From positions 1 through 59,576 of IMG/VR virus record IMGVR_UViG_3300045988_178550: a stretch of DNA of 59,576 nt; one strand, written 5' to 3'. Both the position numbers and the translations under genes were made by a program. Numbering within the stretch: position 1 is the first letter of the stretch; each line of letters starts with the position of its first letter. Positions 16,975 to 39,903 of the stretch are shown piece after piece. This DNA comes from a virus. Under the pieces are notes generated by a model that was given only the letters and a program-made list of their open reading frames with translations, was not told where the DNA came from and searched no databases.

Positions 16975-17685
16975 TTATAAAGTGTTATCAGGAGCCATCC
17001 TCGTAAATATTTTATTATAAAGGTCTTCAAACACAACAGGGAAGTACCTATATAAAGCTAATAAAATCTGGTTAGCTAAATATTGCATATCAGGATGTGC
17101 TTTAGGGTCAGTACGTAATTTAATAAAATGCCTCCATTCACGCAAATTACATGTCATAATTAATTCTGTCTTCAAGCTGGTATTTAAAACAGATCTTGCA
17201 ATTTGTGGCTTAATTCCTTTATTGATTAGTTCATTATAGGCAATTGCACAATCAATACAATTTTTTTCCCAAATATCAAATTCAGGAGTATTGTATTCAA
17301 TGTTGATAGGTTTGACAAAGCTGATTGGTTTACCTTTATAATTACAGTACCTTGTACTTTCTTGTGAGTATGATGCAATCCTATGTCGTACTAATTCATG
17401 GGATATTCCACGGTCAGTAACAATTTTAAAACTACAGGAAATGTGTTCCAAAACTGATTCATGTCCAAGCCTAATTAACATTTTAATAAAAGGTTCAGAA
17501 CTATTATCAGTGATTTTGTCCTCAGATTTGTAACAAATTCTGCCAAATTGTTCAATATAATTATTTGCTACAATACCAGATAAATGTGGGAAAATCATTG
17601 CAGAAGGTTTATCAATAATTCTAATTAAACTACTATAATCAAATTTCATTTCCATTGGGATTCCTTCCCCTTTATTTGCTACCAT
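16975..17685 (-). CDS. thyX: FAD-dependent thymidylate synthase ThyX
   Basis: ThyX signature RHRIASYSQESTRY plus HESVLEH; strong AAAGGAGG SD. Confidence 0.85.
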   Translation of the reverse strand: MVANKGEGIPMEMKFDYSSLIRIIDKPSAMIFPHLSGIVANNYIEQFGRICYKSEDKITDNSSEPFIKMLIRLGHESVLEHISCSFKIVTDRGISHELVRHRIASYSQESTRYCNYKGKPISFVKPINIEYNTPEFDIWEKNCIDCAIAYNELINKGIKPQIARSVLNTSLKTELIMTCNLREWRHFIKLRTDPKAHPDMQYLANQILLALYRYFPVVFEDLYNKIFTRMAPDNTL

Positions 17686-17699
17686 TATAATTCCTCCTT

Positions 17700-17942
17700 T
17701 TATCGCAATATTTTAATACTTTTATATTCTTTCATGTTTAAGTTACGTTCAGGACTAGACAGAATGCAGAATATTAAATCTTCCATTGTAATTTTACTTG
17801 GTAGGTAGGTTTTTAATAATTGTTGGAGCATTTTATCAAATTCAGATTTTTTAATAAAACATGTAATGTATGTCTTATCTCCTTTGTATAGTTGTACTTT
17901 TAAAACAATAACATCAACTTTATCTAATGGTACTACTTGCAT
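17700..17942 (-). CDS. hypothetical protein
   Basis: 80-aa ORF. Confidence 0.5.
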   Translation of the reverse strand: MQVVPLDKVDVIVLKVQLYKGDKTYITCFIKKSEFDKMLQQLLKTYLPSKITMEDLIFCILSSPERNLNMKEYKSIKILR

Positions 17943-18283
17943 AAGTATCGTTTCCTTTCCATAATATATTTTGCTTTATCAGGGAATTTATATTCAATGA
18001 ATTCTGCAAGGATTATTCGATGGCAAAATTCAAAAGGCTTACAATAGCAAACCAAAGTAATACGTGGAAGCCTTAATAAATTATCATAAATATCCTTGTA
18101 TTGGTTAAATGTATTTTCAAGCTGTTCCCAATAGTATTTTTTGAAAATATTTTCAGGAATTAGTCCCTTTTTGTATCGCATAATTAAATCCCATTTAGGA
18201 GCTAATAAACAACCAGACTTCCTTGTAACATCTAGCCTATCAATTTTATTATATTTGATATTAGCAGTGTATATTTTTAGCAT
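17933..18283 (-). CDS. DUF488-like protein
   Basis: 116 aa; TLVCYCKPFEFCHRIILAEFI resembles the DUF488 C-terminal LlC.E....CHR motif. Confidence 0.35.
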   Translation of the reverse strand: MLKIYTANIKYNKIDRLDVTRKSGCLLAPKWDLIMRYKKGLIPENIFKKYYWEQLENTFNQYKDIYDNLLRLPRITLVCYCKPFEFCHRIILAEFIEYKFPDKAKYIMERKRYLCK

Positions 18284-18286
18284 TTC

Positions 18287-18835
18287 CTATTTCCTTATAA
18301 TCAATTGCACAACTTCATCTGCTTTATTTATTAAAGCCATTTTAGGAGGAATTGTCCTATAACTTAGAACATTTAAGTATTTTGATTGCAATTCCATCAT
18401 TTCTCCAATAATGCTATTATATTTATGAATAAATTGTGCATCTATTGTTTTGTCCCTGTTTCGCATATCATTCATAAATTGCAATTTCCTATTTAATTTT
18501 TCAAATCGCTCATTTATTTCATAAATTTCGTTGGGAGGATATTTACCATTATTTTCAGTTTTAACTTCAGCTTCAGTAATAGCAATTAATTCCAAAATAC
18601 AATAGTTTGCAATATCTAAAAGCGTATCCTTTACTGATTCATTCTGGACATTAGCTTTAAAGTTATTACGGTATAATTGTTTTAATCGAAGGAATTTATC
18701 TTGCAACCGAATCAGAATAGCATTAGGATATTCATTCCTTGTGATATTAAAGCTATCACCATAATCAGCATTTTTAGCTTTGTAAACTTCATACATTTTT
18801 TCAGTGATTTTTTTGAACAGTTCTGCATTAGCCAT
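18287..18835 (-). CDS. DUF1599 (nucleotide-modification-associated domain 1)-like protein
   Basis: N-terminal KAKNADYGDSF...ILIRLQDKFLRLKQL matches the KN.DYG...R..DK..R pattern of DUF1599. Confidence 0.45.
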   Translation of the reverse strand: MANAELFKKITEKMYEVYKAKNADYGDSFNITRNEYPNAILIRLQDKFLRLKQLYRNNFKANVQNESVKDTLLDIANYCILELIAITEAEVKTENNGKYPPNEIYEINERFEKLNRKLQFMNDMRNRDKTIDAQFIHKYNSIIGEMMELQSKYLNVLSYRTIPPKMALINKADEVVQLIIRK

Positions 18836-20687: not shown

Positions 20688-21866
20688 CTATTTCCCAACA
20701 ATGCCCCATGGTGTATTAGGATTATATCCATTCATTCCTGATATCATTTTTGCCAATTTAGCTAATGTTTTAGCACTATCTTTTGCTTTATTATCTTTCA
20801 TCATACTTAAATCAGATGAAATTTGTTTTACTGCTGCTTTGACTCCTTCAATTGGACCCACATCATGATAATGATTTTGTGCATCATAATATCCAGTTAA
20901 ATTTCTATCAATATACTTTTCATCAACAAGGTCATATATTAATTCATTAAAATTATCAAACATAAATTGCTGCTTTATTGTTTTACTAAAATGTAATTTC
21001 CAAACATTATGCACAATTTCAGACATTGTTGTCCAATCAATGCCTATATTATTTTTGAACAATTCACTTACAAATCGTTTTGAATTCCATATCCACCAAA
21101 CAATTTCATCTTGCCTTTTATTAAAATAATCAAACGAATAATTTTTTGTAAATATTAAATTTGCATACCTAATATTATTTATAAATGCATCCTCACCAAA
21201 CAAAATATATGTTTCAATAATTGGCATATTTTTTGATACTTTTAAGAACTTAACATTGCCAACATTATTTTTTCTCAAATATTCTATGTATGTCCCTTCA
21301 ACAAATTCTTCAAAACAACATTTAATCCCAATCATATCAGGATTATTACTTGCACAATATATTGAATAGTATTCCATACACATTAAACAATAAATCATGT
21401 ATTCAACTTTATGTTCCTTGTTTGATTTTAAATATGCAGTCAAATTCATATAAAATTGTTTTCTTGCTTCACTACATCTGCAAAATATTTCAAATATCTC
21501 AAACAACACTTTGTATTTTCCATTTTTGATTACTTTCCGATAAATGTTGTTATAGCCTCTCCTACTTCTTCTATTAAACAATAAACCATAAATAACAGAC
21601 ATCAATCCTTTGATATTTGCATATCCAACTTTTTTAACTAATGTTTTGTTTGCTTCCCTAAAATCTTCCAAAAAATCTTTAACCAATTCCGGTTTAAATA
21701 CTTTTAAACATGTCACCATTTTCTTACGATATATTTCATTTGTATCAATAGCAAATGTATTTAAATGTGAGCAATAATTCCCAGTATCAACATGCTTATA
21801 AACCTGGATTCCATTTTCATTTTCAATCATTATTTGTTTCCCATGAGGACAAGTTAAGTTAAGCAT
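20688..21866 (-). CDS. hypothetical protein, third member of the AAA+/vWA operon
   Basis: 392-aa ORF overlapping the vWA gene stop by 8 nt; no motif recognised. Confidence 0.55.
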   Translation of the reverse strand: MLNLTCPHGKQIMIENENGIQVYKHVDTGNYCSHLNTFAIDTNEIYRKKMVTCLKVFKPELVKDFLEDFREANKTLVKKVGYANIKGLMSVIYGLLFNRRSRRGYNNIYRKVIKNGKYKVLFEIFEIFCRCSEARKQFYMNLTAYLKSNKEHKVEYMIYCLMCMEYYSIYCASNNPDMIGIKCCFEEFVEGTYIEYLRKNNVGNVKFLKVSKNMPIIETYILFGEDAFINNIRYANLIFTKNYSFDYFNKRQDEIVWWIWNSKRFVSELFKNNIGIDWTTMSEIVHNVWKLHFSKTIKQQFMFDNFNELIYDLVDEKYIDRNLTGYYDAQNHYHDVGPIEGVKAAVKQISSDLSMMKDNKAKDSAKTLAKLAKMISGMNGYNPNTPWGIVGK

Positions 21867-23700
21867 TTATCATCATCCTCCTTTTTAATACTTCTTTTGT
21901 GATTTCATTATGCAAATCTTTAATATTAACTGATTTGTAACCATCTAATGTTGCACCATTTACTGCAAACTTAATAATACATATTCCTGCATTTTCCATA
22001 ACATTTTCAAGCTTTTTAGCAGTCACTTTGTCAAATGTTTCACCATCAGATATTACAAACAATAATTTCAATTTGCCTTTTAGCTTCTGTTGCAATACAA
22101 CCCTATATGCAGATGATACATCAGTACCACCATTTGAAACAGGACATATATAAGAAATATCAATTGATTCATGAAATTGTTTATTTATTTTTGCACCTGC
22201 ATTATAATCAATTTGCATTGTTCTAATCCCAGGAATTCTATTCACTGCACTTAAAAACATTATTACTGATTCAGCGTAAGGAGTTTCAACATCTTCAGTG
22301 CTGCCAGAAATGTCCCTTAAAATAATAATATCAACATCAACTAATTCCTTCTTTTGATAATTATAAACTTTTGCATCTTCATTTGTTTTGCTTGACAAAT
22401 ATGCTAACTGTTGTTTTTTGAAATTAATATCACCATCAAATGCATTAACAGGAACAACCTTCGTAAATACCTTTTTAAACATCTTTTCCATTTCAGAAAT
22501 TTGATGCTTATACTTATCAATTGTTTGAAGGAAAAATGTTGAACCATTCTTTTTCGGTAAATTTGCCTTATCTAATGAAGCTTTAGCTCCCTTCATCAAA
22601 TCATTAGCTTTATTCACCATTCCTTGCATTGCATCTTTTGTTTGTCCAACTTGCATATTAATCATATTTCTCGTAATAACCTTTATATCAAGTTGTGACA
22701 TATTTGACATATCTTTTGCAAAAAACTCATTGTTGTACTTAATATAACCAGGAACATTTTGCGGATTCATTTTTATTGAATTCAAAACAAATTCTGTGCT
22801 ATTTTGTGATGCTAATGAACCAAATTTATCATTTTGCTTTAATAAATTTAAAACCAATGCAGCAACTTTATAACAATCAATTATTCCACAACGTTTTGAT
22901 ATTATCAAAAATGGGAATACTTCATTTATAATTTTTTGAAAATCTTCATTATACTTTATATCTGCTAACTCACTATCAATAATTTGATATTTACAAAACT
23001 TTTTAATAAATTCAATAATATTACAATACAATTGATTAGCATCATTATCAAATTTATTATCTGTTGGATTCAATTGTGAAAATGTTTTACCATCAATAAT
23101 AGTTTGTTCGTCATACATTGAAGAAAAAATATAAGCAAATTTTGCAAGTTCTTGATAATTCATTTCCAAATAGTATAATATTTTTGCATTAATGACAGCA
23201 TCAAAAACCTGCTTAAATGTTGAGTTATCATAATTTTCTGTTAAAATTTGATTGTTCAAAATTATATCAAATTCCCTTTGAGTGACACCTGCTTCAAACT
23301 CCTCCAGCAATTTATATTTTGCTAACGTTTGAACAATAATACCGTTCACAATTATATCCAACATTGTACCATTTTTCATCCATGATGTTTTTATTATTTG
23401 TTGCAAAATTTTCTTATTATATAACAAATAAATTGTTTTTGTATTCCTACCAATTTGTATATTTGCAACAGTTCTTTCTGGCATTGAATCATATGCATAT
23501 TTTGCTTCTTCATAAATCTCATAATTTTGAAAAGTTTGTTCAACAATATCCCTTAACTTCGGAATAAAGTTTATACGTGCTGTTGGAATGTTTTTTGTTG
23601 AACCACCATATAAAGCAATCTTTTCTTTAAGTTCTTCACGTTCATAAACTTCAATTTTCCTATTTGGTAACAAAATATCATAGTTAATTAATTTTAACAT
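21859..23700 (-). CDS. vWA-domain protein (CobT/CoxE-like)
   Basis: 613 aa; C-terminal MIDAS DxSxS (ILRDISGSTED) and LLFVISDGETFD. Confidence 0.65.
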   Translation of the reverse strand: MLKLINYDILLPNRKIEVYEREELKEKIALYGGSTKNIPTARINFIPKLRDIVEQTFQNYEIYEEAKYAYDSMPERTVANIQIGRNTKTIYLLYNKKILQQIIKTSWMKNGTMLDIIVNGIIVQTLAKYKLLEEFEAGVTQREFDIILNNQILTENYDNSTFKQVFDAVINAKILYYLEMNYQELAKFAYIFSSMYDEQTIIDGKTFSQLNPTDNKFDNDANQLYCNIIEFIKKFCKYQIIDSELADIKYNEDFQKIINEVFPFLIISKRCGIIDCYKVAALVLNLLKQNDKFGSLASQNSTEFVLNSIKMNPQNVPGYIKYNNEFFAKDMSNMSQLDIKVITRNMINMQVGQTKDAMQGMVNKANDLMKGAKASLDKANLPKKNGSTFFLQTIDKYKHQISEMEKMFKKVFTKVVPVNAFDGDINFKKQQLAYLSSKTNEDAKVYNYQKKELVDVDIIILRDISGSTEDVETPYAESVIMFLSAVNRIPGIRTMQIDYNAGAKINKQFHESIDISYICPVSNGGTDVSSAYRVVLQQKLKGKLKLLFVISDGETFDKVTAKKLENVMENAGICIIKFAVNGATLDGYKSVNIKDLHNEITKEVLKRRMMINA

Positions 23701-23709
23701 AATATCACC

Positions 23710-24717
23710 TCAAATGATATTTGCCATCAATTTACTTTTTGCATCCTTTGAATCAAAAAATCCCATATCAATATCTAAATAATACATAAAACTTTGTAAA
23801 ATGATTTCCTTGAACCTTTTAACAGAAATAGAGCTTACATAATCAATTACTTCTTGAACTTCACTGCCATTTATTATTGTTACATCTTTAGGAGATTCAC
23901 CAAAAATTCTTGTTGCAATAGTTCTCCTCATTGCTTCTTTGTCCTTTGACATTGTGAAATAGTCATCAGTTTTTCCTGCCTTTTTATATTCCAATGCCAA
24001 CATTACAGTAGCAATTGCAGCATTTCTTACTGACAATGGATATTCTTCACTTCGTACTTCTCGCATTAAACCAACAATATAATTTATAACATTATCAGGA
24101 ACATCAGACTCACATTCCAATTCATCATCAACAATCCTTTTAACAATTTCAACTTCATCATTTTGTCCAGGATATTCAAAATTGAATGCAACCAACCTTT
24201 GTGCAAAACTTTGTGGTAATTTAACATTACCTGCGTAGGTTGAAGTGTTAGAACAAAATACAATTCTAAAACTATCAGCAGCATATACAATTTTATCACC
24301 AATTGCTGTTACTGCAGTCCTATCAAGAATGCTATTAAACATTAACAAAATTTCCTGCATGCTATGTGTTGCTTCATCAACAATAATGATTCCACCATTT
24401 TCCATACAATCTGCAACAATACCATTTTCAGGTACCAAACTACCATTTTTTAATCTTAAGCCTAAAATTAAACTTGTTTTAGTTTGTTCTGGACTCAATT
24501 GAACATAATATGCATCAACATCATGTTTCATTGCATATTCTTTCGCAATGTTCATTGCAATAATACTTTTACCACTACCAGAAGGACCAACAATATATAA
24601 TGGCCATTTCGTATTTTCAATTACATTCAAACACCTTTTCAACATCCTTCTACCTTCAACACCAACTACACGTGGTACTTTCCTAACATCCAATTTTGTA
24701 TTAATATTATTTGCCAT
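23710..24717 (-). CDS. AAA+ ATPase, MoxR/CobS-like (AAA_5)
   Basis: Walker A VGPSGSGKS, Walker B IIIVDEATH; 335 aa; paired with the vWA gene. Confidence 0.7.
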   Translation of the reverse strand: MANNINTKLDVRKVPRVVGVEGRRMLKRCLNVIENTKWPLYIVGPSGSGKSIIAMNIAKEYAMKHDVDAYYVQLSPEQTKTSLILGLRLKNGSLVPENGIVADCMENGGIIIVDEATHSMQEILLMFNSILDRTAVTAIGDKIVYAADSFRIVFCSNTSTYAGNVKLPQSFAQRLVAFNFEYPGQNDEVEIVKRIVDDELECESDVPDNVINYIVGLMREVRSEEYPLSVRNAAIATVMLALEYKKAGKTDDYFTMSKDKEAMRRTIATRIFGESPKDVTIINGSEVQEVIDYVSSISVKRFKEIILQSFMYYLDIDMGFFDSKDAKSKLMANII

Positions 24718-29666: not shown

Positions 29667-32366
29667 CTACCTTACTTGAATTTCCCTATGGTATATTTTT
29701 CTATTCTCAATTATTACTTGTTTCTTCCTTACATTTTCATTAAATTCTAATGCACCTGCATCAATCAATGCCTTAACAACCCTAGCATTACAAGTCCTTT
29801 TTTCATTTTTATCTTCAAAATCAGGTTTATCAAGGTATGGCCCATTTTTAGCAATTGCTTCCGCTGCCTTTTCACCAACACCTTTAATTGTTGTTAGCCC
29901 CCTTGATATGCATTTACCACCAAACATTTCAACTGCACCATAATTTGCTGTCCCATTAACATGCGGTGGAAGTATTACAATTCCTGCTTTTGATGCCTCT
30001 GTTTCATATACTGCTAATTTTTGTTCATCAGATTCATTTTGTAATGTTATCAACCAAAATTCAAATGGATAATGCACTTTGTACCACATTTGTTGAAAAC
30101 TTAATAAACAATATCCAACTGCATGACCTTTGTTAAATAAATAACCATTTAACATACTTTCAAATAAATCACTATATTCTTTCTTTGAATATTCTTTGTT
30201 TACTTTTCTTGCATGTTTTAAGAATTTTTCCCTTATTCCACCAGGCCCAAAAATAATTTGCCTTTTTTGAATGTTATCATTACTATGTAAGTCAAGTCCT
30301 TTCATTAGCATTTCTGCTTCTTCCCAATCAAGTCCACCTAATTGAGTACATATTCTCAAAATATCTTCCTGATACACGAAACATCCATACGTTTCAGGTA
30401 AGTATTTTGCTGCAATATAATCAGCATTTTCATTATTATTTTTAGCATTTGCAAATTGTTCTGGCATTCCACACCCTAATGGACCAGGCCTATTCAATGC
30501 GGATACTGCAGCAACATCAGCAAAATTTGTTGGTTTAATTAATTCAAGAATTCCTTTTGCTCCAGCTTTTTCATACTGGAATACTCCATTTGTATCACAT
30601 TCCCTAAATGCTTTTATAACTTTTTTATCAGTTAACATCTTTTCATCATATTTTGCACCTGTTAACTTTTCTAATTGTTTAATAATTGATACAGTCCTTA
30701 AGCCTAAAATATCCATTTTTAATACTTTAAGAACATGTAAATCATTTAAATCAAAACAACTTTGATAATTACTTCTAACCCTTATTAAAGCAAATTGGTC
30801 AGTTAATTTCCCACAAGTTATAGCAACTCCACCTGCATGCCTTCCCATAAAACGTATTTGACGATAAAATTTATAGAACAATGTTACTACTCCTGTTTCA
30901 TCATCAATTTGCCTTAACTTTTTATTGTTTAATAATGGCTCAAGCTCAATATCAATGCCACCCATTGCAGTAATACTTGGATATACGACTCTGATTTCTT
31001 TTTTCATAATATCCATGTATTCTTTTGGCAAATCCTCTCTGACCCTAAATAAATCATTGATTAGATTGTCTGCTTTATATAATCCATAAGTTGTTATTTG
31101 TGCTGTTCTCCCTTTATATCGATTGTGGATATAATCAATAACTTCTTGCCTACGTTCTGACTCAAAATCCATATCAATATCAGGCATTTTATGTTTACCT
31201 GGTCTTAAAAACCTTTCAAACATTGTACCTTGCTGGATAGCATCAACATCAGTAATTCCTAAAGCATAAGCAATAATGCTCCCACAAACAGATCCACGAC
31301 CATGTCCATAACCAATATCATTCTTTTTTGCAGATGCAATAATGTCCCAACAGAGAATGAAATAATCTTCAAAACCTAAATCAAAAATAATGCTTAATTC
31401 ATATTTTGCTCTTTGAATATACTCCTTGTTCCACTTACCTTTTGCTTTCAATCCTTCCTTAATAAGCCTTTTAATTAATGTTTTTGTGTCCTCACCATAA
31501 TCGACTTTCGGAATATCTTCAACAAACAAATTGTCTAAATCAACATTACATTTTTCAACAATTTCTGCCGTATTTTTTAAAAGCGGAATTGCACTCCTTT
31601 TATGCCTTTTTTCAAACCTTGCTTTTACTTCATTTTCTGATGGCATGTAACGAGATGAATAATCAGCATACATTGTACGATTGCCAATCTTATACATTAA
31701 TTGATATGCTTCATAATCTTCAGGTTTTATAAAATGACTATCAGTTGTTATAATTGGTTTATATTTATATTTATCACAAATCTTTAAAAGCACATTATCA
31801 ACTTTTAATTGAATATCATTCCCATTATCATCAACAACTTTGTATGGCATTATTTCAATATATAAATCATCACCAAATATTTGTTCTAAAAGCCTAATTC
31901 TTTTTAATGCTTTTTTATTATCATTTTCAAGAATTGCACTTGATGCTACTCCTGCTAAACATGCAGTAGAACAAATTAGCCCTTCATGATACTTTTTTAA
32001 CAATGCCATTGTAACAACTGGTTTACGATAAAAATTTTCAACATTTGCAGCTGTCATCAACCTCATTAAATTTTGATATCCAATTTTATCTTTGCAAAAT
32101 AAGCACATGTGATAATATCTTTTTTCTTTATCAAATTTCGGTTGAAAATAAATTTCACAACCTAAAATTGCTTTAATTCCAACATCCTTACAAGCTTCAT
32201 AATGAGCAACTAATCCTGATATGCTACCATGTTCAGATATTCCCAGTGAAGTTAGCCCTAATTCATTTGCATATCTTGCTGCATCCTTTTGTCTCCCAAA
32301 TCCATCAAATAAACTAAATTCTGAATGTCTATGTAAGTTTGTCCATCCATACATTATCTTCTCCAC
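29667..32366 (-). CDS. dnaE: DNA polymerase III alpha subunit (DnaE-type, PHP domain), short form
   Basis: N-terminal PHP motif LHRHSEFSLFDG...ISEHGS; palm/fingers region conserved; 899 aa. Confidence 0.85.
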   Translation of the reverse strand: MEKIMYGWTNLHRHSEFSLFDGFGRQKDAARYANELGLTSLGISEHGSISGLVAHYEACKDVGIKAILGCEIYFQPKFDKEKRYYHMCLFCKDKIGYQNLMRLMTAANVENFYRKPVVTMALLKKYHEGLICSTACLAGVASSAILENDNKKALKRIRLLEQIFGDDLYIEIMPYKVVDDNGNDIQLKVDNVLLKICDKYKYKPIITTDSHFIKPEDYEAYQLMYKIGNRTMYADYSSRYMPSENEVKARFEKRHKRSAIPLLKNTAEIVEKCNVDLDNLFVEDIPKVDYGEDTKTLIKRLIKEGLKAKGKWNKEYIQRAKYELSIIFDLGFEDYFILCWDIIASAKKNDIGYGHGRGSVCGSIIAYALGITDVDAIQQGTMFERFLRPGKHKMPDIDMDFESERRQEVIDYIHNRYKGRTAQITTYGLYKADNLINDLFRVREDLPKEYMDIMKKEIRVVYPSITAMGGIDIELEPLLNNKKLRQIDDETGVVTLFYKFYRQIRFMGRHAGGVAITCGKLTDQFALIRVRSNYQSCFDLNDLHVLKVLKMDILGLRTVSIIKQLEKLTGAKYDEKMLTDKKVIKAFRECDTNGVFQYEKAGAKGILELIKPTNFADVAAVSALNRPGPLGCGMPEQFANAKNNNENADYIAAKYLPETYGCFVYQEDILRICTQLGGLDWEEAEMLMKGLDLHSNDNIQKRQIIFGPGGIREKFLKHARKVNKEYSKKEYSDLFESMLNGYLFNKGHAVGYCLLSFQQMWYKVHYPFEFWLITLQNESDEQKLAVYETEASKAGIVILPPHVNGTANYGAVEMFGGKCISRGLTTIKGVGEKAAEAIAKNGPYLDKPDFEDKNEKRTCNARVVKALIDAGALEFNENVRKKQVIIENRKIYHREIQVR

Positions 32367-33307
32367 CTTTGCGTAAATTTTTCAACAAATTGTGGACATT
32401 GCAGCATATCCTTTTGACCTGCCTTGTATAAAATTTCATTTGCAATAATGTTCATATGATTACTTGTACGATACTTATTATCTTTACAATGTTGTTTAAA
32501 CATTTCACTATTTGCAAATAAATCAAATCTTCCCTTTTTAGTAGCATCAACAAATGCTTTATAAATTTTTGCTTGTTTCTTCCATTCTTTCAAATTATTA
32601 CAATTGTATGTTAATACTTCTTCAGAATTCTTCATCATTTCAAAAATTTCAAAATTTTCTTGATAAACATGAAGGCTTCCAACTTGATGAACATAAGTAC
32701 CAACATTAACACCTAATGAATTTGCAATAACTTCTTGAATGTTTGTAAAATTATAAATATCATAAGGCATTCCAAGTATTGCATCATTAGACCTCATTGT
32801 AACAATCAAATGTAGTTGATTATCACGAAGCATAAATTGTAAAGCAATTGTGCAAGGAGTATCATGACCAGAATAGTTTAACAAATCACATTCATGGCTA
32901 TAAATTGTTAAAACTGCTTGCCTTGTATCTTTATCTTTTCTTATTTTATCAACAATTGTTTGAAGTCCTTTAGCTATACGATATCCATAAGCTCCATGCA
33001 TTGTCATTCCATCATCACTAAATAAACCCATTTTTGAATTAAATGCCGTAAAATACTTTAACTTATCTTCTTTTAAAGCAAATAATAAAGATTCAATTGT
33101 TGCGTATACAATACTAAATTTTCTTTCAGGTAAATATGCCAATCTACTTCTTGGATTAGTTAAAACAATTTGAACTGCGGGAAGTTCTTTTGTAACTTTC
33201 CCTCTTGGATTCACATTAAATGCATCAACGAATTGTGTATTTAATTCTTTATATAATTCAGCAACACTTGAAACAATGATACTCATTTCATTCACCTCAA
33301 TTTTCAA
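32354..33307 (-). CDS. ThyA-fold pyrimidine dNMP hydroxymethylase/methylase, predicted dCMP-specific
   Basis: Catalytic Cys in HDTPCTIALQF. MRSNDAILGMPYDIYNF aligns to TS QRSCDVFLGLPFNIASY, with Asp replacing the uracil-specifying Asn, as in T4 gp42. Confidence 0.65.
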   Translation of the reverse strand: MKIEVNEMSIIVSSVAELYKELNTQFVDAFNVNPRGKVTKELPAVQIVLTNPRSRLAYLPERKFSIVYATIESLLFALKEDKLKYFTAFNSKMGLFSDDGMTMHGAYGYRIAKGLQTIVDKIRKDKDTRQAVLTIYSHECDLLNYSGHDTPCTIALQFMLRDNQLHLIVTMRSNDAILGMPYDIYNFTNIQEVIANSLGVNVGTYVHQVGSLHVYQENFEIFEMMKNSEEVLTYNCNNLKEWKKQAKIYKAFVDATKKGRFDLFANSEMFKQHCKDNKYRTSNHMNIIANEILYKAGQKDMLQCPQFVEKFTQRWRR

Positions 33308-34145
33308 TTATTTCTTCAATTATTTCTTTTAAACATAATTGCTTGTCTTTAATATTCCTTTTGCATTCATATAGCATACTTTTTACAAAATCAACATTTC
33401 CTGGCATATTACAATAATTCATCAAATGCTTTGCTTCACGACCAGTTTGTACTCTAAAAAATCCAGGAATTTTAAAATGATTATCAGCATCATATGATAT
33501 ATCAACAACCGGAACAGATCCCATTGAAATGCATTCAACATATCTTGATGTTACCCAATTATATTTTGTGTATAAATCCCTTGCAATAATTAAATGATAT
33601 TTATATGCCATTGCAGTATCATAATACTTATCGTATGAAAGCCTGTTGTCAACATTTCCATGTTTAACAAAACATTGCATAAAACATTCATCATGATATT
33701 TCTTTAATGTAATGTCACGCCCATCATTTAATCCACCACCAAAAAATAAAACATCTTTGTATATTTTATCAACAACTTTATTATATTTGAAAAATAATTC
33801 AGGAACATAATTATATGAATAATTTTTTAGCCAATCATATTTACTTGGTAAACAATGAAATTGTCCTAAAACATAATCACACAATCCAACTATTTTGCTA
33901 CATTTGTCTAAACAATATAAGTCTGTTGCAATAAAAATTTTTGTCATTTTACTTGCTTGCAACATTTCACTTAGTTGCTCATTTTCCTTATCTGTGATTG
34001 CACCACCAATGAGTATAATTACATCATCAATATTTTTGACTCCTTTAAGTGCATCTACAATCAACAAATATTCATAATATCCACTATTTACATCTGCATT
34101 ATTTCGATAATAATCTAAACCTAATTTTTTAATCATCATTATCAC
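33297..34145 (-). CDS. putative DNA (hydroxymethyl-base) glycosyltransferase, T4 beta-glucosyltransferase-like
   Basis: DVLFFGGGLNDGRD and HLIIARDLYTKYNWVTSRYVECISMGSVPVVD parallel T4 BGT DVIYGGSFRSGQRE and ALIIGDKNYNDNFITLRVWETMASDAVMLID (from memory). Confidence 0.4.
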   Translation of the reverse strand: MIMMIKKLGLDYYRNNADVNSGYYEYLLIVDALKGVKNIDDVIILIGGAITDKENEQLSEMLQASKMTKIFIATDLYCLDKCSKIVGLCDYVLGQFHCLPSKYDWLKNYSYNYVPELFFKYNKVVDKIYKDVLFFGGGLNDGRDITLKKYHDECFMQCFVKHGNVDNRLSYDKYYDTAMAYKYHLIIARDLYTKYNWVTSRYVECISMGSVPVVDISYDADNHFKIPGFFRVQTGREAKHLMNYCNMPGNVDFVKSMLYECKRNIKDKQLCLKEIIEEIIEN

Positions 34146-34650
34146 CTGCTTTTAACCATGCAACAATATCCACTAATGTTGACCAATCACAAAATATCGT
34201 TTTCAATTTCAATTTATTACAATATTTCTGAAATAATTCATCATGTTGGCTTTGATTTTTCCCATTTAATGATGCTGACAATTCAATGTTTGCAGGTTTA
34301 ACATATATGATTGTTATATCAATTTTTTCATTTTTCTGCTCTTCAATCAATTTATTATGAATGATATTAAAATATTCATCAACATAATCCCTATTTCTTT
34401 CAATTGCAGAATAAACAACCTCAGTTAAGAAAAATCTATCACAAATAACATTTAAATCTAATTGTTTAACAACTTCAATGAATGTGAACGTCTTTTCAAC
34501 AACAGAAATTAGATTGCTATGATTGTGGTCATAATATCCATGGTCCTTGTATATATGCATTCCTGTTTCATTACTTAAAATTTTTGCAAGTGTTGTTTTT
34601 CCAACCCTATCAATTCCTTCAATTGCGATTATTTTAGCCATTATTTTCAC
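34129..34650 (-). CDS. dNMP (thymidylate-type) kinase
   Basis: IAIEGIDRVGKTTL P-loop typical of Tmk-family kinases. Confidence 0.7.
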   Translation of the reverse strand: MKIMAKIIAIEGIDRVGKTTLAKILSNETGMHIYKDHGYYDHNHSNLISVVEKTFTFIEVVKQLDLNVICDRFFLTEVVYSAIERNRDYVDEYFNIIHNKLIEEQKNEKIDITIIYVKPANIELSASLNGKNQSQHDELFQKYCNKLKLKTIFCDWSTLVDIVAWLKAGDNDD

Positions 34651-34982
34651 CTTTTTTCTTTTTTAATTCTTTCAAAAACAATGCTTTGTTTGTCACAAAT
34701 CATTTCTTTAATTGCTCTACAATTATAACCTTCAGCCAACGTTAAATTAATTAAAAATAGCCAGCAATCAGCTAATTCTTCTAATGTACTCCATTCATCA
34801 CGTGTTCCTTTATGAAACGGCTTCCATGTTTTATCAGCCTGAAGGACTTCACCAACCTCACTTACTAAACCTAATGCAAAATAACTTACTAAATCTGGCT
34901 CATGTTTTGGCAACGTTTTATTGAAAGCAATTTTTTGCAACTCAATTTGTTTTTGAAAAATATTTTCCATTGTTTTTTCCAT
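34647..34982 (-). CDS. MazG-like all-alpha NTP pyrophosphohydrolase
   Basis: GLVSEVGEV and EELADCWLFL metal-binding helices. Confidence 0.6.
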   Translation of the reverse strand: MEKTMENIFQKQIELQKIAFNKTLPKHEPDLVSYFALGLVSEVGEVLQADKTWKPFHKGTRDEWSTLEELADCWLFLINLTLAEGYNCRAIKEMICDKQSIVFERIKKEKR

Positions 34983-35236: not shown

Positions 35237-35295
35237 TATTCATTCCTCCAAAATTAAATTATGCCGACTAACATCTTCATTAGCCGGCATAATAA

Positions 35296-36129
35296 TTATC
35301 TCCTACGTTTCATTCTTGATTTGTTGGCTACTGAAGCTTTAGCTTTTTTCTTAGGAGGAGGCAATTCATCTTCTTCTTCGTCCTCCTCCTCATCTTCATC
35401 CTCATCTTCATCTAAATCTTCATCATAGTCATCATCCTCTTCATCTTCTTCTTCATCTTCAATTTCATCTTCATCGTCTTCATCTTCATCATAATCATAT
35501 TTCTTAGAAGGCTTTACTTTTTGTTTTCGTTTTCTTGGTGTTTCATCCTCTTCTTCTTCACCAATACGTTCAATGTATTCTTCAACTGTTTCTTCTTCAC
35601 TTACCGTATTAAATGCTGCAAACAACATTTCAAACATTTTCTTTTTAGTAAACGGTTTAACATTTGCAGTGAATTTAGTGATTTTCCCTGTAGGAATAAC
35701 AGCATAACTTGTATCTGTTCCTGTACCATTTCTTTGGATTACCATATCCTGAGAAACAATATCACCAAGTGTCTCATAAACCGCTCCAAGTGCAGGTAGT
35801 GGAGTTGACCTTGCAGCTTTAAAGAAAAATAATTCTTGTTGTTTTGTTTCATAATTATAAACCGGCCAACAATAATGTGATTGTGTTCTTACATCACTAT
35901 CTGAAGTATCACAGTTAGGACATTCAACCCCTTTGTATCTCAAACAAGGATGTTGAAAACCTTGCCATTTTGTATGCATTACAACTTCAATACCATCTTC
36001 AAAATCAACTAAGAACCTTACCCTTACCTTGTCTCCTGCTTTCTTAATACCAAACAGGTTTTTGAAATTGCCTCCTGATTTTGCAATATCAGATTTGATT
36101 GCATCAAGAATGCTTCTTTTTTCTGTCAT
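35296..36129 (-). CDS. gp32-like ssDNA-binding protein with a long acidic tail and basic terminus
   Basis: HPCLRYKGVECPNC Zn-ribbon-like His/Cys cluster, OB-like core, about 70-aa D/E tail, then PPPKKKAKASVANKSRMKRRR. ATGA overlap with primase. Confidence 0.5.
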   Translation of the reverse strand: MTEKRSILDAIKSDIAKSGGNFKNLFGIKKAGDKVRVRFLVDFEDGIEVVMHTKWQGFQHPCLRYKGVECPNCDTSDSDVRTQSHYCWPVYNYETKQQELFFFKAARSTPLPALGAVYETLGDIVSQDMVIQRNGTGTDTSYAVIPTGKITKFTANVKPFTKKKMFEMLFAAFNTVSEEETVEEYIERIGEEEEDETPRKRKQKVKPSKKYDYDEDEDDEDEIEDEEEDEEDDDYDEDLDEDEDEDEEEDEEEDELPPPKKKAKASVANKSRMKRRR

Positions 36130-37049
36130 TTGTTTTCTTCCTTTCGTATTTGTTTTTTGATATTCATCCAACAATAGTTGAAATGAAATTTATCTAAGTC
36201 ACCAATATCTTTTATTGAATTTGGTAACTTAAATCGAATTACATCAAAATATTGTTTTAAGTATTCTGTTCCCTTTTCACCAGTTGGAGTATTATCTAAT
36301 GCAGATATTATTTTTGTGATTCCTTTTTGTTGAAGTTTTGAAATTTGTTCATCAGTTATTTTCCAACCAAGAATTGCAACTGAATTCTTAATTCCAAATT
36401 GTTGTAATTTTAACCAGTCCATATAACCTTCAGTTATTACAACATAATCATCAAAATAATTTCCAACCAATGTTCTTCTTCTACTAAAACCAAAGTTATA
36501 TAAATACTTCCTATCACTTGGAACAACTGCTCTTGATACATACCCTTTAAATTTTCCGTTATCAACCATTGGCATAATGATTGGATATGTATCATTATAA
36601 TTAATTCGAATATCACATTCTTGCATTACTTTTCTTGTGAACCCTCTTTTCAACATATACTTTAAAGCAGCTGTTTTCTTTTCATGTTTCCAATCCACAG
36701 TTGGTAAACTATAAAAGTAAATTTTTGCATCGTTTAAAGCTTCTTTATTTGTTTTTTTAGTTGATTGTTTTATAGTAATATTTTGTGTTTGTTTATTATA
36801 TATTATTTTATTATATATTATTATCGCTTTCAACGGAGAACATTTTTCAATTCTCCTAACGAATTCCAAAATATCACCTTTTGCTCCACAACCATAACAA
36901 TAAAAGTAATCTTTGTCAATATTTACTTGTAAGCTTGGTTTATCATCCCCATGGAATGGACATTTTATCTTGACCTTATCATAAACAGTATCATCAATTA
37001 GCTTGTAATGATATAAAACTTTTGCAAAATTTCTTGTTGGCTCATCCAT
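36126..37049 (-). CDS. dnaG: DnaG-type primase (CHC2 zinc finger + Toprim)
   Basis: CPFHGDDKPSLQV..YCYGCGAKGD zinc finger; ITEGYMD and SALDNTPTGEKG Toprim motifs. Confidence 0.8.
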   Translation of the reverse strand: MDEPTRNFAKVLYHYKLIDDTVYDKVKIKCPFHGDDKPSLQVNIDKDYFYCYGCGAKGDILEFVRRIEKCSPLKAIIIYNKIIYNKQTQNITIKQSTKKTNKEALNDAKIYFYSLPTVDWKHEKKTAALKYMLKRGFTRKVMQECDIRINYNDTYPIIMPMVDNGKFKGYVSRAVVPSDRKYLYNFGFSRRRTLVGNYFDDYVVITEGYMDWLKLQQFGIKNSVAILGWKITDEQISKLQQKGITKIISALDNTPTGEKGTEYLKQYFDVIRFKLPNSIKDIGDLDKFHFNYCWMNIKKQIRKEENK

Positions 37050-37579: not shown

Positions 37580-38083
37580 TTAATTAGCCAGACTATCAAT
37601 TTCATAATAATCTTTTATTGCCTCAGTTAAAGCTTTATATAAATATTTAACTGGGAAATTCTTTGCTTTATATGCTCTTAACATTGATTCAAAACATTCT
37701 TTAAGCGGAACTTCTAACCTTCCATGCCTTGTCCCTCTATCTTTAGTGTATGGTCTCAAAATATAAATATAACCATCCACATCATTCCCTTGGTCATCCC
37801 TTACTATAACTTTTTTCTTTGAGCATTTCCAATTACTTCTTGTATGAATGATTACATTTTCAAAATGTTCAAATTCTTCTTTTTTATAAAACTGAACCAA
37901 CAACCCATAAACTTTATCTTTAGGATTATTGGTTCGCTCAACGGTTGGATAGCCGAAAGTACAATCACCAATAAACAATAATTTTGCACCCTTTAATACC
38001 GCTCTCCTCTGAATCGAATGAGCTAAAAATAATGAATAAATTTTAGAATCCATGTGAGTATCAAATACGAATATTGGCTTCAT
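37580..38083 (-). CDS. possible gamma-glutamyl cyclotransferase (AIG2)-fold protein
   Basis: AVLKGAKLLF...GYPTVER...DKVYGLLVQF..EEFEHFE...DVDGYIYI loosely follows the GGCT pattern. Confidence 0.25.
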   Translation of the reverse strand: MKPIFVFDTHMDSKIYSLFLAHSIQRRAVLKGAKLLFIGDCTFGYPTVERTNNPKDKVYGLLVQFYKKEEFEHFENVIIHTRSNWKCSKKKVIVRDDQGNDVDGYIYILRPYTKDRGTRHGRLEVPLKECFESMLRAYKAKNFPVKYLYKALTEAIKDYYEIDSLAN

Positions 38084-38152: not shown

Positions 38153-38237
38153 TATATAAAATGAACTATTTTTCATACAAAAATAAAATATGTGTTTACC
38201 ATGTCTTTGCACGATAAACACATATAATATAAAATTA

Positions 38238-39204: not shown

Positions 39205-39903
39205 TTAGCAACCACAACCATTGTTGCAACCATATCCACAACCATTACCATAATAACCTACTGCCTGATAAGGGCTACAAGTAATATATGCAGGCTGAGG
39301 GAAAGGTCTTAATGTGCCAATAATATTAGCACTTTGTGCCTGCTGGCTAAGCTGGAAGTTTGCAGTTTGCAATTCCCTATCACGATCAGCAAGCTTATCA
39401 CGCAAGTTCTGCATAGTATTGCTATTAATTAATGCACGAGTTGCTTCAGCTTCTGCATGAATTGCAGTAGTGATTTCACAAGTGTTCTTGTAGTTTTCTG
39501 CACGAACAGCATCAATATTGCGATTAGTTTCGCAGCAGCATTGCTGTGCGGCAAAGCGACTTTCTGCGATTGCAGCATTAGTCTGGTTGAATCCTTGACA
39601 CAGACCCATTTGTAAAGCGCCAGTAGATTCACAGATATCTTTTTGGATACCGAAATTCTGATTAGCGAGTTGGTTAAAACCACGGTCGATAGTGTTGTTC
39701 AGGTTAGTGTACAAAAATTCATTAGTTAAGGTGTTTACCGCACCATTAGCGCCACCACCAAAACCGCCGAAGCCACCGCCCCATGCGAGTAAGAAAAATA
39801 ACATTACTACCCACATCCAGCCAGCTCCACCACCCATGAAGCCATCGCCATCAGATTTGTTCATGTCATAGACAGGAACCATTTGAGCACCTTCGAATGC
39901 CAT
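39205..39903 (-). CDS. Gly/Cys-rich membrane protein
   Basis: YjcZ-like GGGAGWMWVVMLFFLLAWGGGFGGFGGG TM, central CCC and coiled coil, C-terminal GNGCGYGCNNGCGC; visibly higher GC than its neighbours. Confidence 0.55.
   Translation of the reverse strand: MAFEGAQMVPVYDMNKSDGDGFMGGGAGWMWVVMLFFLLAWGGGFGGFGGGANGAVNTLTNEFLYTNLNNTIDRGFNQLANQNFGIQKDICESTGALQMGLCQGFNQTNAAIAESRFAAQQCCCETNRNIDAVRAENYKNTCEITTAIHAEAEATRALINSNTMQNLRDKLADRDRELQTANFQLSQQAQSANIIGTLRPFPQPAYITCSPYQAVGYYGNGCGYGCNNGCGC

Follow-up and report, generated by a model that had tools for sequence, protein, structure and literature searches.

Does a phage with a PBSX-type tail and a DnaE-type polymerase replace the cytosine of its DNA by a glycosylated base, in the manner of phage T4? 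The question is raised by four genes in the IMG/VR virus record IMGVR_UViG_3300045988_178550, of which positions 1 to 59,576 were analysed (hereafter, the window). The original prediction, made from the letters of the window, took these genes for a cytosine hydroxymethylation and glycosylation set: a MazG-like nucleoside triphosphate (NTP) pyrophosphatase, a Tmk-type deoxynucleoside monophosphate (dNMP) kinase, a protein resembling T4 beta-glucosyltransferase (BGT) and a ThyA-fold enzyme. Our analysis favours this reading. We put the probability at roughly 0.75 that the four genes serve a T4-like pathway, in which cytosine is replaced before replication by 5-hydroxymethyldeoxycytidine (5hmdC, with the base 5hmC) and glycosylated after replication.

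As had been proposed, four co-oriented open reading frames (ORFs) on the minus strand fill positions 32354-34982, directly ahead of the gene for the DnaE-type polymerase. Gene starts were chosen by inspection of ribosome sites together with gene calls made independently on a public contig of 99% identity, which yield the same products of 111, 170, 279 and 310 amino acids (aa). An AGGTGA-type ribosome site lies 5-8 nt before the ATG at each of the four starts. The overlap of the genes that was originally described is found with the longest-ORF starts only; when the genes are taken to begin at the likelier ATG codons, they abut to within approximately 10 nt, and the stop of the ThyA-like gene overlaps the likely ATG of the DnaE gene at 32354. 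Residue numbers refer to the longest ORFs (282 aa for the glycosyltransferase, 317 aa for the ThyA-fold enzyme) and are reduced by 3 and by 7, respectively, when counted from the likely starts. A scan of the region for consensus promoters and terminators stayed at chance level (61 sites vs 59 expected), and no operon boundaries were drawn. The relevant features are:

34647-34982, minus strand: MazG/dimeric-dUTPase-like all-alpha NTP pyrophosphatase, 111 aa (PF08761, phrog_173); proposed dCTPase (and dUTPase)
34129-34641, minus strand: Tmk-type dNMP kinase, 170 aa from ATG 34641 (longest ORF from GTG 34650; phrog_761); proposed kinase for 5-hydroxymethyldeoxycytidine monophosphate (5hmdCMP)
33297-34136, minus strand: compact GT-B glycosyltransferase, 279 aa from ATG 34136 (longest ORF 282 aa, from GTG 34145; family profile and AF2 model); proposed DNA 5hmC glycosyltransferase
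32354-33286, minus strand: ThyA-fold pyrimidine hydroxymethylase, 310 aa from ATG 33286 (longest ORF 317 aa, from TTG 33307; Pfam, phrog_5131); predicted hydroxymethylase for deoxycytidine monophosphate (dCMP)
29667-32366, minus strand: DnaE-type (PHP / Pol III alpha) replicative polymerase, 895-899 aa, start at 32354 or 32366 (ORF and annotated relatives)
16975-17685, minus strand: ThyX flavin-dependent thymidylate synthase (Pfam Thy1, signature motif)

The ThyA-fold enzyme and the glycosyltransferase

The ThyA-fold enzyme matches Pfam PF00303 Thymidylat_synt (1.9e-19), phrog_5131 (1.5e-56) and the PHROG thymidylate-synthase families, but scores far under every NCBIfam thymidylate synthase equivalog cut-off (at best 62.8 vs 174.55 bits). 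Its closest PDB match is the CMP 5-hydroxymethylase MilA (3.3e-27), and among its closer relatives in cultured phages are proteins annotated as pyrimidine hydroxymethylases, SPO1 gp29 (approximately 33% identity) being one. An alignment with Escherichia coli ThyA, T4 gp42, SPO1 gp29 and metagenomic relatives showed that the catalytic set E58/Y94/R126/C146/R166/S167/H207/Y209 (E. coli numbering) is intact, including the catalytic Cys that had been noted before (C152, equivalent to C146). The same alignment confirmed the claim that Asp, not Asn, occupies the position which specifies uracil in thymidylate synthase: D183, in the PYDIYNF segment, corresponds to E. coli N177 and to T4 gp42 D179. Here the PYD of the enzyme aligns with PFN of ThyA, placing Asp at N177, and the register was the same when HMMER was used independently to align the enzyme with a solved thymidylate synthase. 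With the further equivalences D149 = L143, D175 = D169, R129 = R126 and S173 = S167, the enzyme shows N177D, L143D and H147T and keeps D169, which is the exact pattern of T4 gp42. The controls in the alignment were as expected, with L143/N177 in E. coli ThyA, D/D in T4 gp42 and D143/N177 in the SPO1 dUMP (deoxyuridine monophosphate) hydroxymethylase.

These positions have been connected with reaction products in characterised enzymes. A bulky residue at L143 goes with a methyl product, and Asp or Glu, which admits water, with a hydroxymethyl product (PMC13326640). D169N marks the flavin-dependent synthases of 5-hydroxy-dCMP (5hodCMP) from RB69 and DLP3 and was present in every 5hodCMP synthase tested in that study (PMC13326640). 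Furthermore, a structural study of MilA assigned Lys/Ala to ribonucleotide-preferring enzymes and Arg/Ser to deoxynucleotide users at the positions of R126/S167 (PMC5175136); the ThyA-fold enzyme carries the deoxyribo-type Arg/Ser pair. Because Asp stands at the L143 position and D169 is kept, a hydroxymethyl product is favoured over a methyl or a hydroxy product. Every published signature residue of a dCMP hydroxymethylase is present in the enzyme, and on these residues it is predicted to be one.

Other assignments of this enzyme were considered and rejected: 5-methyl-dCMP as the product in view of the Asp at the L143 position, 5-hydroxy-dCMP in view of the retained D169, and the ribonucleotide CMP as the substrate in view of the Arg/Ser pair in place of Lys/Ala, despite MilA being the best PDB match. 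An ordinary thymidylate synthase was rejected on account of the Asp at N177, the sub-threshold scores and the presence of ThyX.

The 282-aa protein alone had no match in Pfam, PHROGs, NCBIfam, PDB (phmmer) or 50,697 phage records (tblastn). An exhaustive profile search, however, placed 122 cluster representatives of similar length in its family, and a 108-sequence alignment from this search was used as the family profile and as AlphaFold input. The top PDB sequence for the profile was T4 BGT (E 2.5e-14), and hhalign in global mode aligned the family with T4 BGT over the full length (98.7%, E 1.9e-15). With the 108 sequences AlphaFold (AF2) gave a confident model, with a predicted local distance difference test score (pLDDT) of 96.6 and a predicted template modelling score (pTM) of 0.93, whereas a run on only 4 aligned sequences was useless (pLDDT 36). 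In a Foldseek search the six best PDB matches were all T4 BGT (E 3.8e-8 to 4.8e-7, TM 0.60-0.69), followed by other GT-B enzymes; among the profile and fold matches to solved structures, T4 BGT was best and a non-glycosyltransferase fold was not found. Both the profile and the predicted fold identify the protein as a GT-B enzyme and T4 BGT as its nearest relative of solved structure.

The segments DVLFFGGG..GRD and HLIIARD..VTSRYVECISMGSVPVVD, from which a parallel to BGT had originally been drawn, are exactly those that align with BGT DVIYGGSFRSGQRE and ALIIGDKNYNDNFITLRVWETMASDAVMLID, respectively. In the BGT structures, R191, R195, R269 and E272 are UDP-binding (uridine diphosphate-binding) residues. 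In the 282-aa numbering, E25, D75, R143, R201 and E204 align with BGT E22, D100, R195, R269 and E272; E25 is the sole invariant residue of the 108-member family, and conservation is at least 90% for D75, R201 and E204. For D100 a role as the catalytic base has been cited (bioRxiv 10.1101/2023.12.21.572611). The commonest Pfam match in the family is the generic Glyco_trans_1_2, found in 39 of the 108 members. Because the window protein gives no match to a T4 BGT-specific Pfam model with E of 0.1 or lower, we treat its family as a sister family to T4 BGT (CAZy family GT63) and not as part of the curated family. The reaction predicted for the enzyme would be glucosylation of 5hmC in duplex DNA, with UDP-glucose as the donor.

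Accessory enzymes and conservation of the gene set

The MazG-like protein matches Pfam PF08761 dUTPase_2 (7.8e-7, 30 bits vs a cut-off of 22.9) and the NTP pyrophosphohydrolase family phrog_173 (3.7e-10). It contains EVGEV and EELADC motifs of the metal-binding type, and its ATG is preceded by the ribosome site AAGGTGA. The superfamily named in the original prediction is well supported by these matches; the stated relation to the fold of the T4 dCTPase gp56 is less firm, as hhalign found a weak but specific match to the gp56 C-terminus (88% over 38 columns). By analogy the protein may be a dCTPase like gp56. Its substrate is not readable from the sequence, and we know of no sequence rule for dCTPase specificity in the MazG superfamily.

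The next gene proved to encode a Tmk-type dNMP kinase, as was expected. The protein matches phrog_761 thymidylate kinase (1.3e-15) and has an EGIDRVGKTT P-loop and a DRF motif, and its family profile finds SPbeta YorR (3.7e-11) and Tmk structures (approximately 2e-10) in PDB. It is not an orthodox Tmk, since its 31 bits lie under the dTMP kinase equivalog cut-off of 83 bits; the match to the T4 gp1-type family phrog_139 is at the level of the P-loop only.

A bona fide ThyX is separately encoded, in line with the earlier claim (Pfam Thy1, 1.3e-48; a RHRIASYSQESTRY motif fitting the RHRxxSxxxxSxR signature). ThyX supplies deoxythymidine monophosphate (dTMP), and the ThyA-fold enzyme is therefore not needed for this purpose. 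Two genes lie beside ThyX. The first encodes a 182-aa protein (18287-18835, minus strand) that matches phrog_1485 and Pfam DUF1599, 'nucleotide modification associated domain 1' (6.8e-10), and the second a 116-aa protein (17933-18283, minus strand) that matches phrog_2450. The two proteins may represent a further nucleotide-modification component. A PDB search with the DUF1599 protein gave no match, and literature searches for DUF1599/Nmad1 returned nothing relevant.

For a comparison of related loci, a search was built on a 21-sequence alignment of the BGT-like family. Ten IMG/VR contigs encode BGT-like proteins, nine of them with 27-32% identity to the window protein; the tenth, with 66%, is the same relative as that represented by loci L001-L004. 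Eight of the ten contigs show the order Tmk-like, BGT-like, ThyA-like, DnaE; of the other two, one is cut at its end and one has no detectable Tmk-like gene. A MazG-like gene is located 1-2 kb upstream in these relatives. The same gene set is held by two contigs of approximately 50 kb that were binned with Clostridia genomes.

The genes also occur together outside the DnaE phages. In loci L025-L027, genes for a dUTPase_2 protein, a ThyA homologue, a Tmk-like and a BGT-like protein surround a family-B DNA polymerase gene. Locus L024 has a ThyA homologue (cut by the locus end), a Tmk-like and a BGT-like gene near a family-B polymerase; a dUTPase_2 gene was not called in the stretch fetched. These four loci (L024-L027) are metagenome contigs of 33-76 kb which are unrelated to the window phage. 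Methyltransferase-like, cytidylyltransferase-like and TROVE/Ro60-like genes were seen nearby in L024. The signature D143/D169/D177 is present in every examined ThyA homologue that adjoins a BGT-like gene, with both polymerase types. As the four components recur both in DnaE phages that have diverged and in contigs with a family-B polymerase, they form a module.

Two relatives of the window phage, MT837767 from human faeces (L007, 4120-7552) and Agathobaculum phage AB434P2 (L009, 2398-5582), have retained the D-type ThyA homologue immediately ahead of DnaE, with the MazG-like gene another few kb upstream, but are without the kinase and the glycosyltransferase. In their place these loci carry a cytidylyltransferase-like gene and genes of unknown function for 328-, 361- and 383-aa proteins, one with a weak HAD/PNKP match. 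This contrast suggests exchangeable decoration cassettes on a common hydroxymethylase, and the two loci may specify a different, undescribed decoration of 5hmC.

Proposed pathway and rival explanations

From the established homology, fold, active-site conservation and gene linkage we infer the substrates and products, the sugar and its linkage, the extent of replacement and the specificity of the pyrophosphatase. The MazG-like pyrophosphatase would hydrolyse dCTP, and probably dUTP too, and so deplete dCTP, with dCMP passing to the ThyA-fold enzyme and dUMP to ThyX. Using methylene-tetrahydrofolate and its catalytic Cys, the ThyA-fold enzyme would then place a methylene group on C5 of dCMP, which would be hydrated to give 5hmdCMP. 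Phosphorylation to the diphosphate 5hmdCDP by the Tmk-type kinase and to the triphosphate 5hmdCTP by a host NDP (nucleoside diphosphate) kinase would follow, and the adjacent DnaE, which would need to accept 5hmdCTP, would incorporate 5hmdC instead of dC. Finally, the BGT-like enzyme would put a sugar on the 5-hydroxymethyl group in duplex DNA. Glucose from host UDP-glucose is the simplest candidate, because sugar-nucleotide genes were not found among the window ORFs scanned (a part of the total); these ORFs likewise yielded no second glycosyltransferase and no alpha-glucosyltransferase. The expected gain for the phage would be resistance to restriction and CRISPR nucleases.

The folate balance of such a pathway can also be considered. 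Dihydrofolate is formed neither by ThyX nor by a hydroxymethylase, and the folate stays tetrahydrofolate in both reactions. No dihydrofolate reductase (DHFR) was detected among the scanned ORFs, and the tetrahydrofolate-sparing pair of ThyX and hydroxymethylase would fit a phage without a DHFR of its own.

Several points weigh against this pathway. The modification of the DNA is a prediction from sequence and a structural model, and the rules for L143 and D169 are correlations drawn from a small number of characterised enzymes. Given its weak link to gp56, the MazG-like protein could simply be a dUTPase, and its gene is also kept in the relatives that have no glycosyltransferase. The kinase is of the Tmk type and not of the T4 gp1 type, and 5hmdCMP is its proposed substrate. 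The BGT-like protein is approximately 70 residues shorter than BGT and approximately 17% identical to it over the hhalign alignment; the equivalent of BGT R191 is D141 and is not conserved, whereas those of R195, R269 and E272 are, and none of the 108 family members matches a T4 BGT-specific Pfam model with E of 0.01 or lower. Finally, some of the synteny within the DnaE clade may be inherited and not selected.

The low identity, the shorter chain and the altered R191 position also leave room for an explanation in which 5hmC is present in the DNA and the BGT-like enzyme adds something other than the beta-glucosyl group of T4, be it another hexose, a pentose or the other anomer. Phage GT-B DNA glycosyltransferases have been reported to install diverse glycans (bioRxiv 10.1101/2023.12.21.572611), and relatives of the window phage carry different accessory genes at the same locus. 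On the other hand, the residues for the glucose and UDP contacts of BGT (E22, D100, R269, E272) are conserved, and the lack of a sugar-nucleotide biosynthesis gene among the scanned ORFs favours an abundant host donor such as UDP-glucose. We regard a departure from the T4 sugar or linkage as possible, though unlikely.

Different chemistry at C5 appears far less probable. The ThyA-fold enzyme could make 5-methyl-dCMP, as in XP12, or 5-hydroxy-dCMP, as in RB69 and DLP3, in which case the glycosyltransferase would act on 5-hydroxycytosine; all three enzyme classes share the ThyA fold with Asp at N177 (PMC13326640), and the residue rules that separate them are empirical. Both products are contradicted by the residues found, since the L143 position has Asp, as in characterised hydroxymethylases, and not a bulky hydrophobic residue, and D169 is kept while all tested 5hodCMP synthases are D169N (PMC13326640). 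A methyl product would, moreover, give the adjacent glycosyltransferase no acceptor. Hardly any weight is left for ordinary nucleotide supply in a phage with unmodified DNA, in which the genes would encode a dUTPase, a dTMP kinase and a redundant thymidylate synthase, and the glycosyltransferase would act on a virion protein or a host cell-wall polymer. Housekeeping members do exist in each of these families, automatic annotation names similar genes 'thymidylate synthase', and phages do encode glycosyltransferases for other targets. The uracil-specifying Asn is gone, however, the scores are far under the thymidylate synthase cut-offs, and dTMP is already supplied by ThyX. The nearest relative of the glycosyltransferase in both sequence and fold is the DNA-modifying T4 BGT, and the enzyme is linked to a D-type ThyA homologue in all contexts examined, with two polymerase types. 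Replacement of cytosine by 5hmdC followed by glycosylation is thus the reading that we prefer.

If this reading is true, an uncultured lineage of gut phages, probably infecting Clostridia, replaces its cytosine fully or largely with glycosylated 5hmC. This would have consequences for library preparation, nanopore basecalling and enzymatic methyl-seq of such phages, and would help to decide which defences, whether restriction, CRISPR or modification-dependent, are effective against them. The analysis also provides a testable function and a name for a family of approximately 120 clusters that is left unannotated by Pfam, PHROG and NCBIfam, and the compact BGT relative could serve as a reagent for 5hmC labelling. 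More tentatively, and at odds that we consider rather long, the approximately 280-aa BGT-like enzymes might form an uncharacterised family of DNA glycosyltransferases, present in uncultured phages with at least two replication systems and maybe placing a non-T4 sugar or linkage on 5hmC. In that case, phages of gut Clostridia would contain a previously undescribed hypermodified cytosine, and the family would offer a new small 5hmC-labelling enzyme.

Phage background and relation to known systems

The window has a GC content of approximately 30% and encodes a terminase, an SPP1-type portal, capsid and scaffold proteins. Its contractile tail is specified by a PBSX-like module (sheath, XkdM-type tube, YqbQ-like protein and baseplate J proteins). 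Together with DnaE this agrees with the phage type originally named. RecA, a Cas4-like nuclease, a RuvC-like protein and a primase are encoded too, and relatives of DnaE are annotated with PHP, DNA_pol3_alpha, finger and HHH_6 domains. By DnaE (tblastn, 40% identity), the closest phages in culture are those of Clostridium_AP and Agathobaculum, and human or lemur faeces are the source of many uncultured relatives; a gut Clostridia host can reasonably be supposed on these sequences. No tRNAs were found in the window, and blastn of the region against phage records returned only two short ThyA-like matches, so that this collection does not contain the phage.

Several further genes on the minus strand were noted. 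A 292-aa protein (35296-36174) has an H-x-C-x8-C-x2-C motif followed by an Asp/Glu-rich tail of approximately 100 residues, a layout that recalls by eye the single-strand DNA-binding proteins of the T4 gp32 type; its only match is a weak one to a PHROG of unknown function. This gene is followed by a terminator-like hairpin (35258-35293, minus strand). A similar hairpin (38188-38225, minus strand) lies upstream of the gene at 37580-38083 and is followed by the best promoter-like site of the region (11/12 matches, TG motif); both hairpins have 16-bp stems and then T-runs, although the overall counts of such sites are at chance. The gene at 37580-38083 encodes a 167-aa protein with borderline similarity to gamma-glutamyl cyclotransferase/AIG2-like proteins (Pfam GGACT 1.8e-4, just under the cut-off), which is conserved at E of approximately 1e-52 in the closest relatives (L001-L004, L011). 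A 232-aa protein (39205-39903) combines a Gly-rich hydrophobic N-terminal part with a Cys/Gly-rich C-terminus (…GNGCGYGCNNGCGC) and has no family match. Downstream of the replication genes, a MoxR-like AAA_5 ATPase (23710-24717) and then a 613-aa protein (21859-23700), whose counterpart in relatives shows a weak VWA_CoxE match, form a conserved pair.

Among the systems with ThyA-type cytosine enzymes, the structural relative MilA of Streptomyces rimofaciens (PDB 5b6d) shares Asp at the N177 and L143 positions with the window enzyme. It differs in Lys133/Ala176, which favour a ribonucleotide, whereas the window enzyme has Arg/Ser as in dCMP- and dUMP-using enzymes. SPO1 gp29, a dUMP hydroxymethylase, is related by the approximately 33% identity and by Asp at L143, but has Asn at N177 in accordance with its uracil substrate, where the window enzyme has Asp. 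RB69 and DLP3 also combine an N177D ThyA homologue with a dNMP kinase and DNA glycosyltransferases that replace and decorate cytosine; their synthases are D169N, work with flavin and O2 and are accompanied by arabinosyltransferases (PMC13326640), whereas the window enzyme keeps D169. Arabinose-nucleotide genes were not seen in the window phage among the ORFs scanned. Other decorations on 5hmC made by ThyA homologues have been described with MetaGPA (PMC8670742).

The original prediction regarded such a gene set as unusual for this type of phage. This is fair in part; it is overstated insofar as the module is present in many uncultured phages and ThyA-linked GT-B enzymes had already been reported. 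Literature searches for Firmicutes hmC phages returned nothing relevant. Metagenome mining that included a gut phage database found that GT-B DNA glycosyltransferases with a D100-equivalent Asp often adjoin thymidylate synthase homologues (bioRxiv 10.1101/2023.12.21.572611). The window locus is alike in having a GT-B enzyme with the D100 equivalent beside a ThyA homologue in an uncultured phage, such as those of the gut. It differs in that the enzymes characterised in that study are mainly TET/5mYOX-linked, and the approximately 280-aa family may or may not be included there.

The closest parallel is the T4 pathway with its dCTPase-dUTPase gp56, the hydroxymethylase gp42, the dNMP kinase gp1 and BGT, for which we propose the same four roles here. 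The ThyA-fold enzyme shares with gp42 the D at L143, the T at H147, D169 and the D at N177. Homology to BGT is detectable in the glycosyltransferase, in which the equivalents of E22, D100, R195, R269 and E272 are conserved, and its gene adjoins that of the hydroxymethylase near the polymerase gene, as do b-gt, 42 and 43 in T4. Differences concern the kinase, which is of the Tmk type instead of the gp1 type, and the glycosyltransferase, which is compact and very divergent and has no alpha-glucosyltransferase beside it among the scanned ORFs. Furthermore, dTMP is supplied via ThyX and not via Td plus Frd, the polymerase is DnaE-type and not family B, and the phage itself, of approximately 59 kb, specifies a contractile tail through a PBSX-like module, its closest relatives in culture being phages of gut Clostridia. 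The logic of the pathway is already known from T4; because metagenome surveys already report ThyA-linked GT-B DNA glycosyltransferases, this is an extension of a known kind, and the window set carries the T4 paradigm into a different phage lineage without overturning it.

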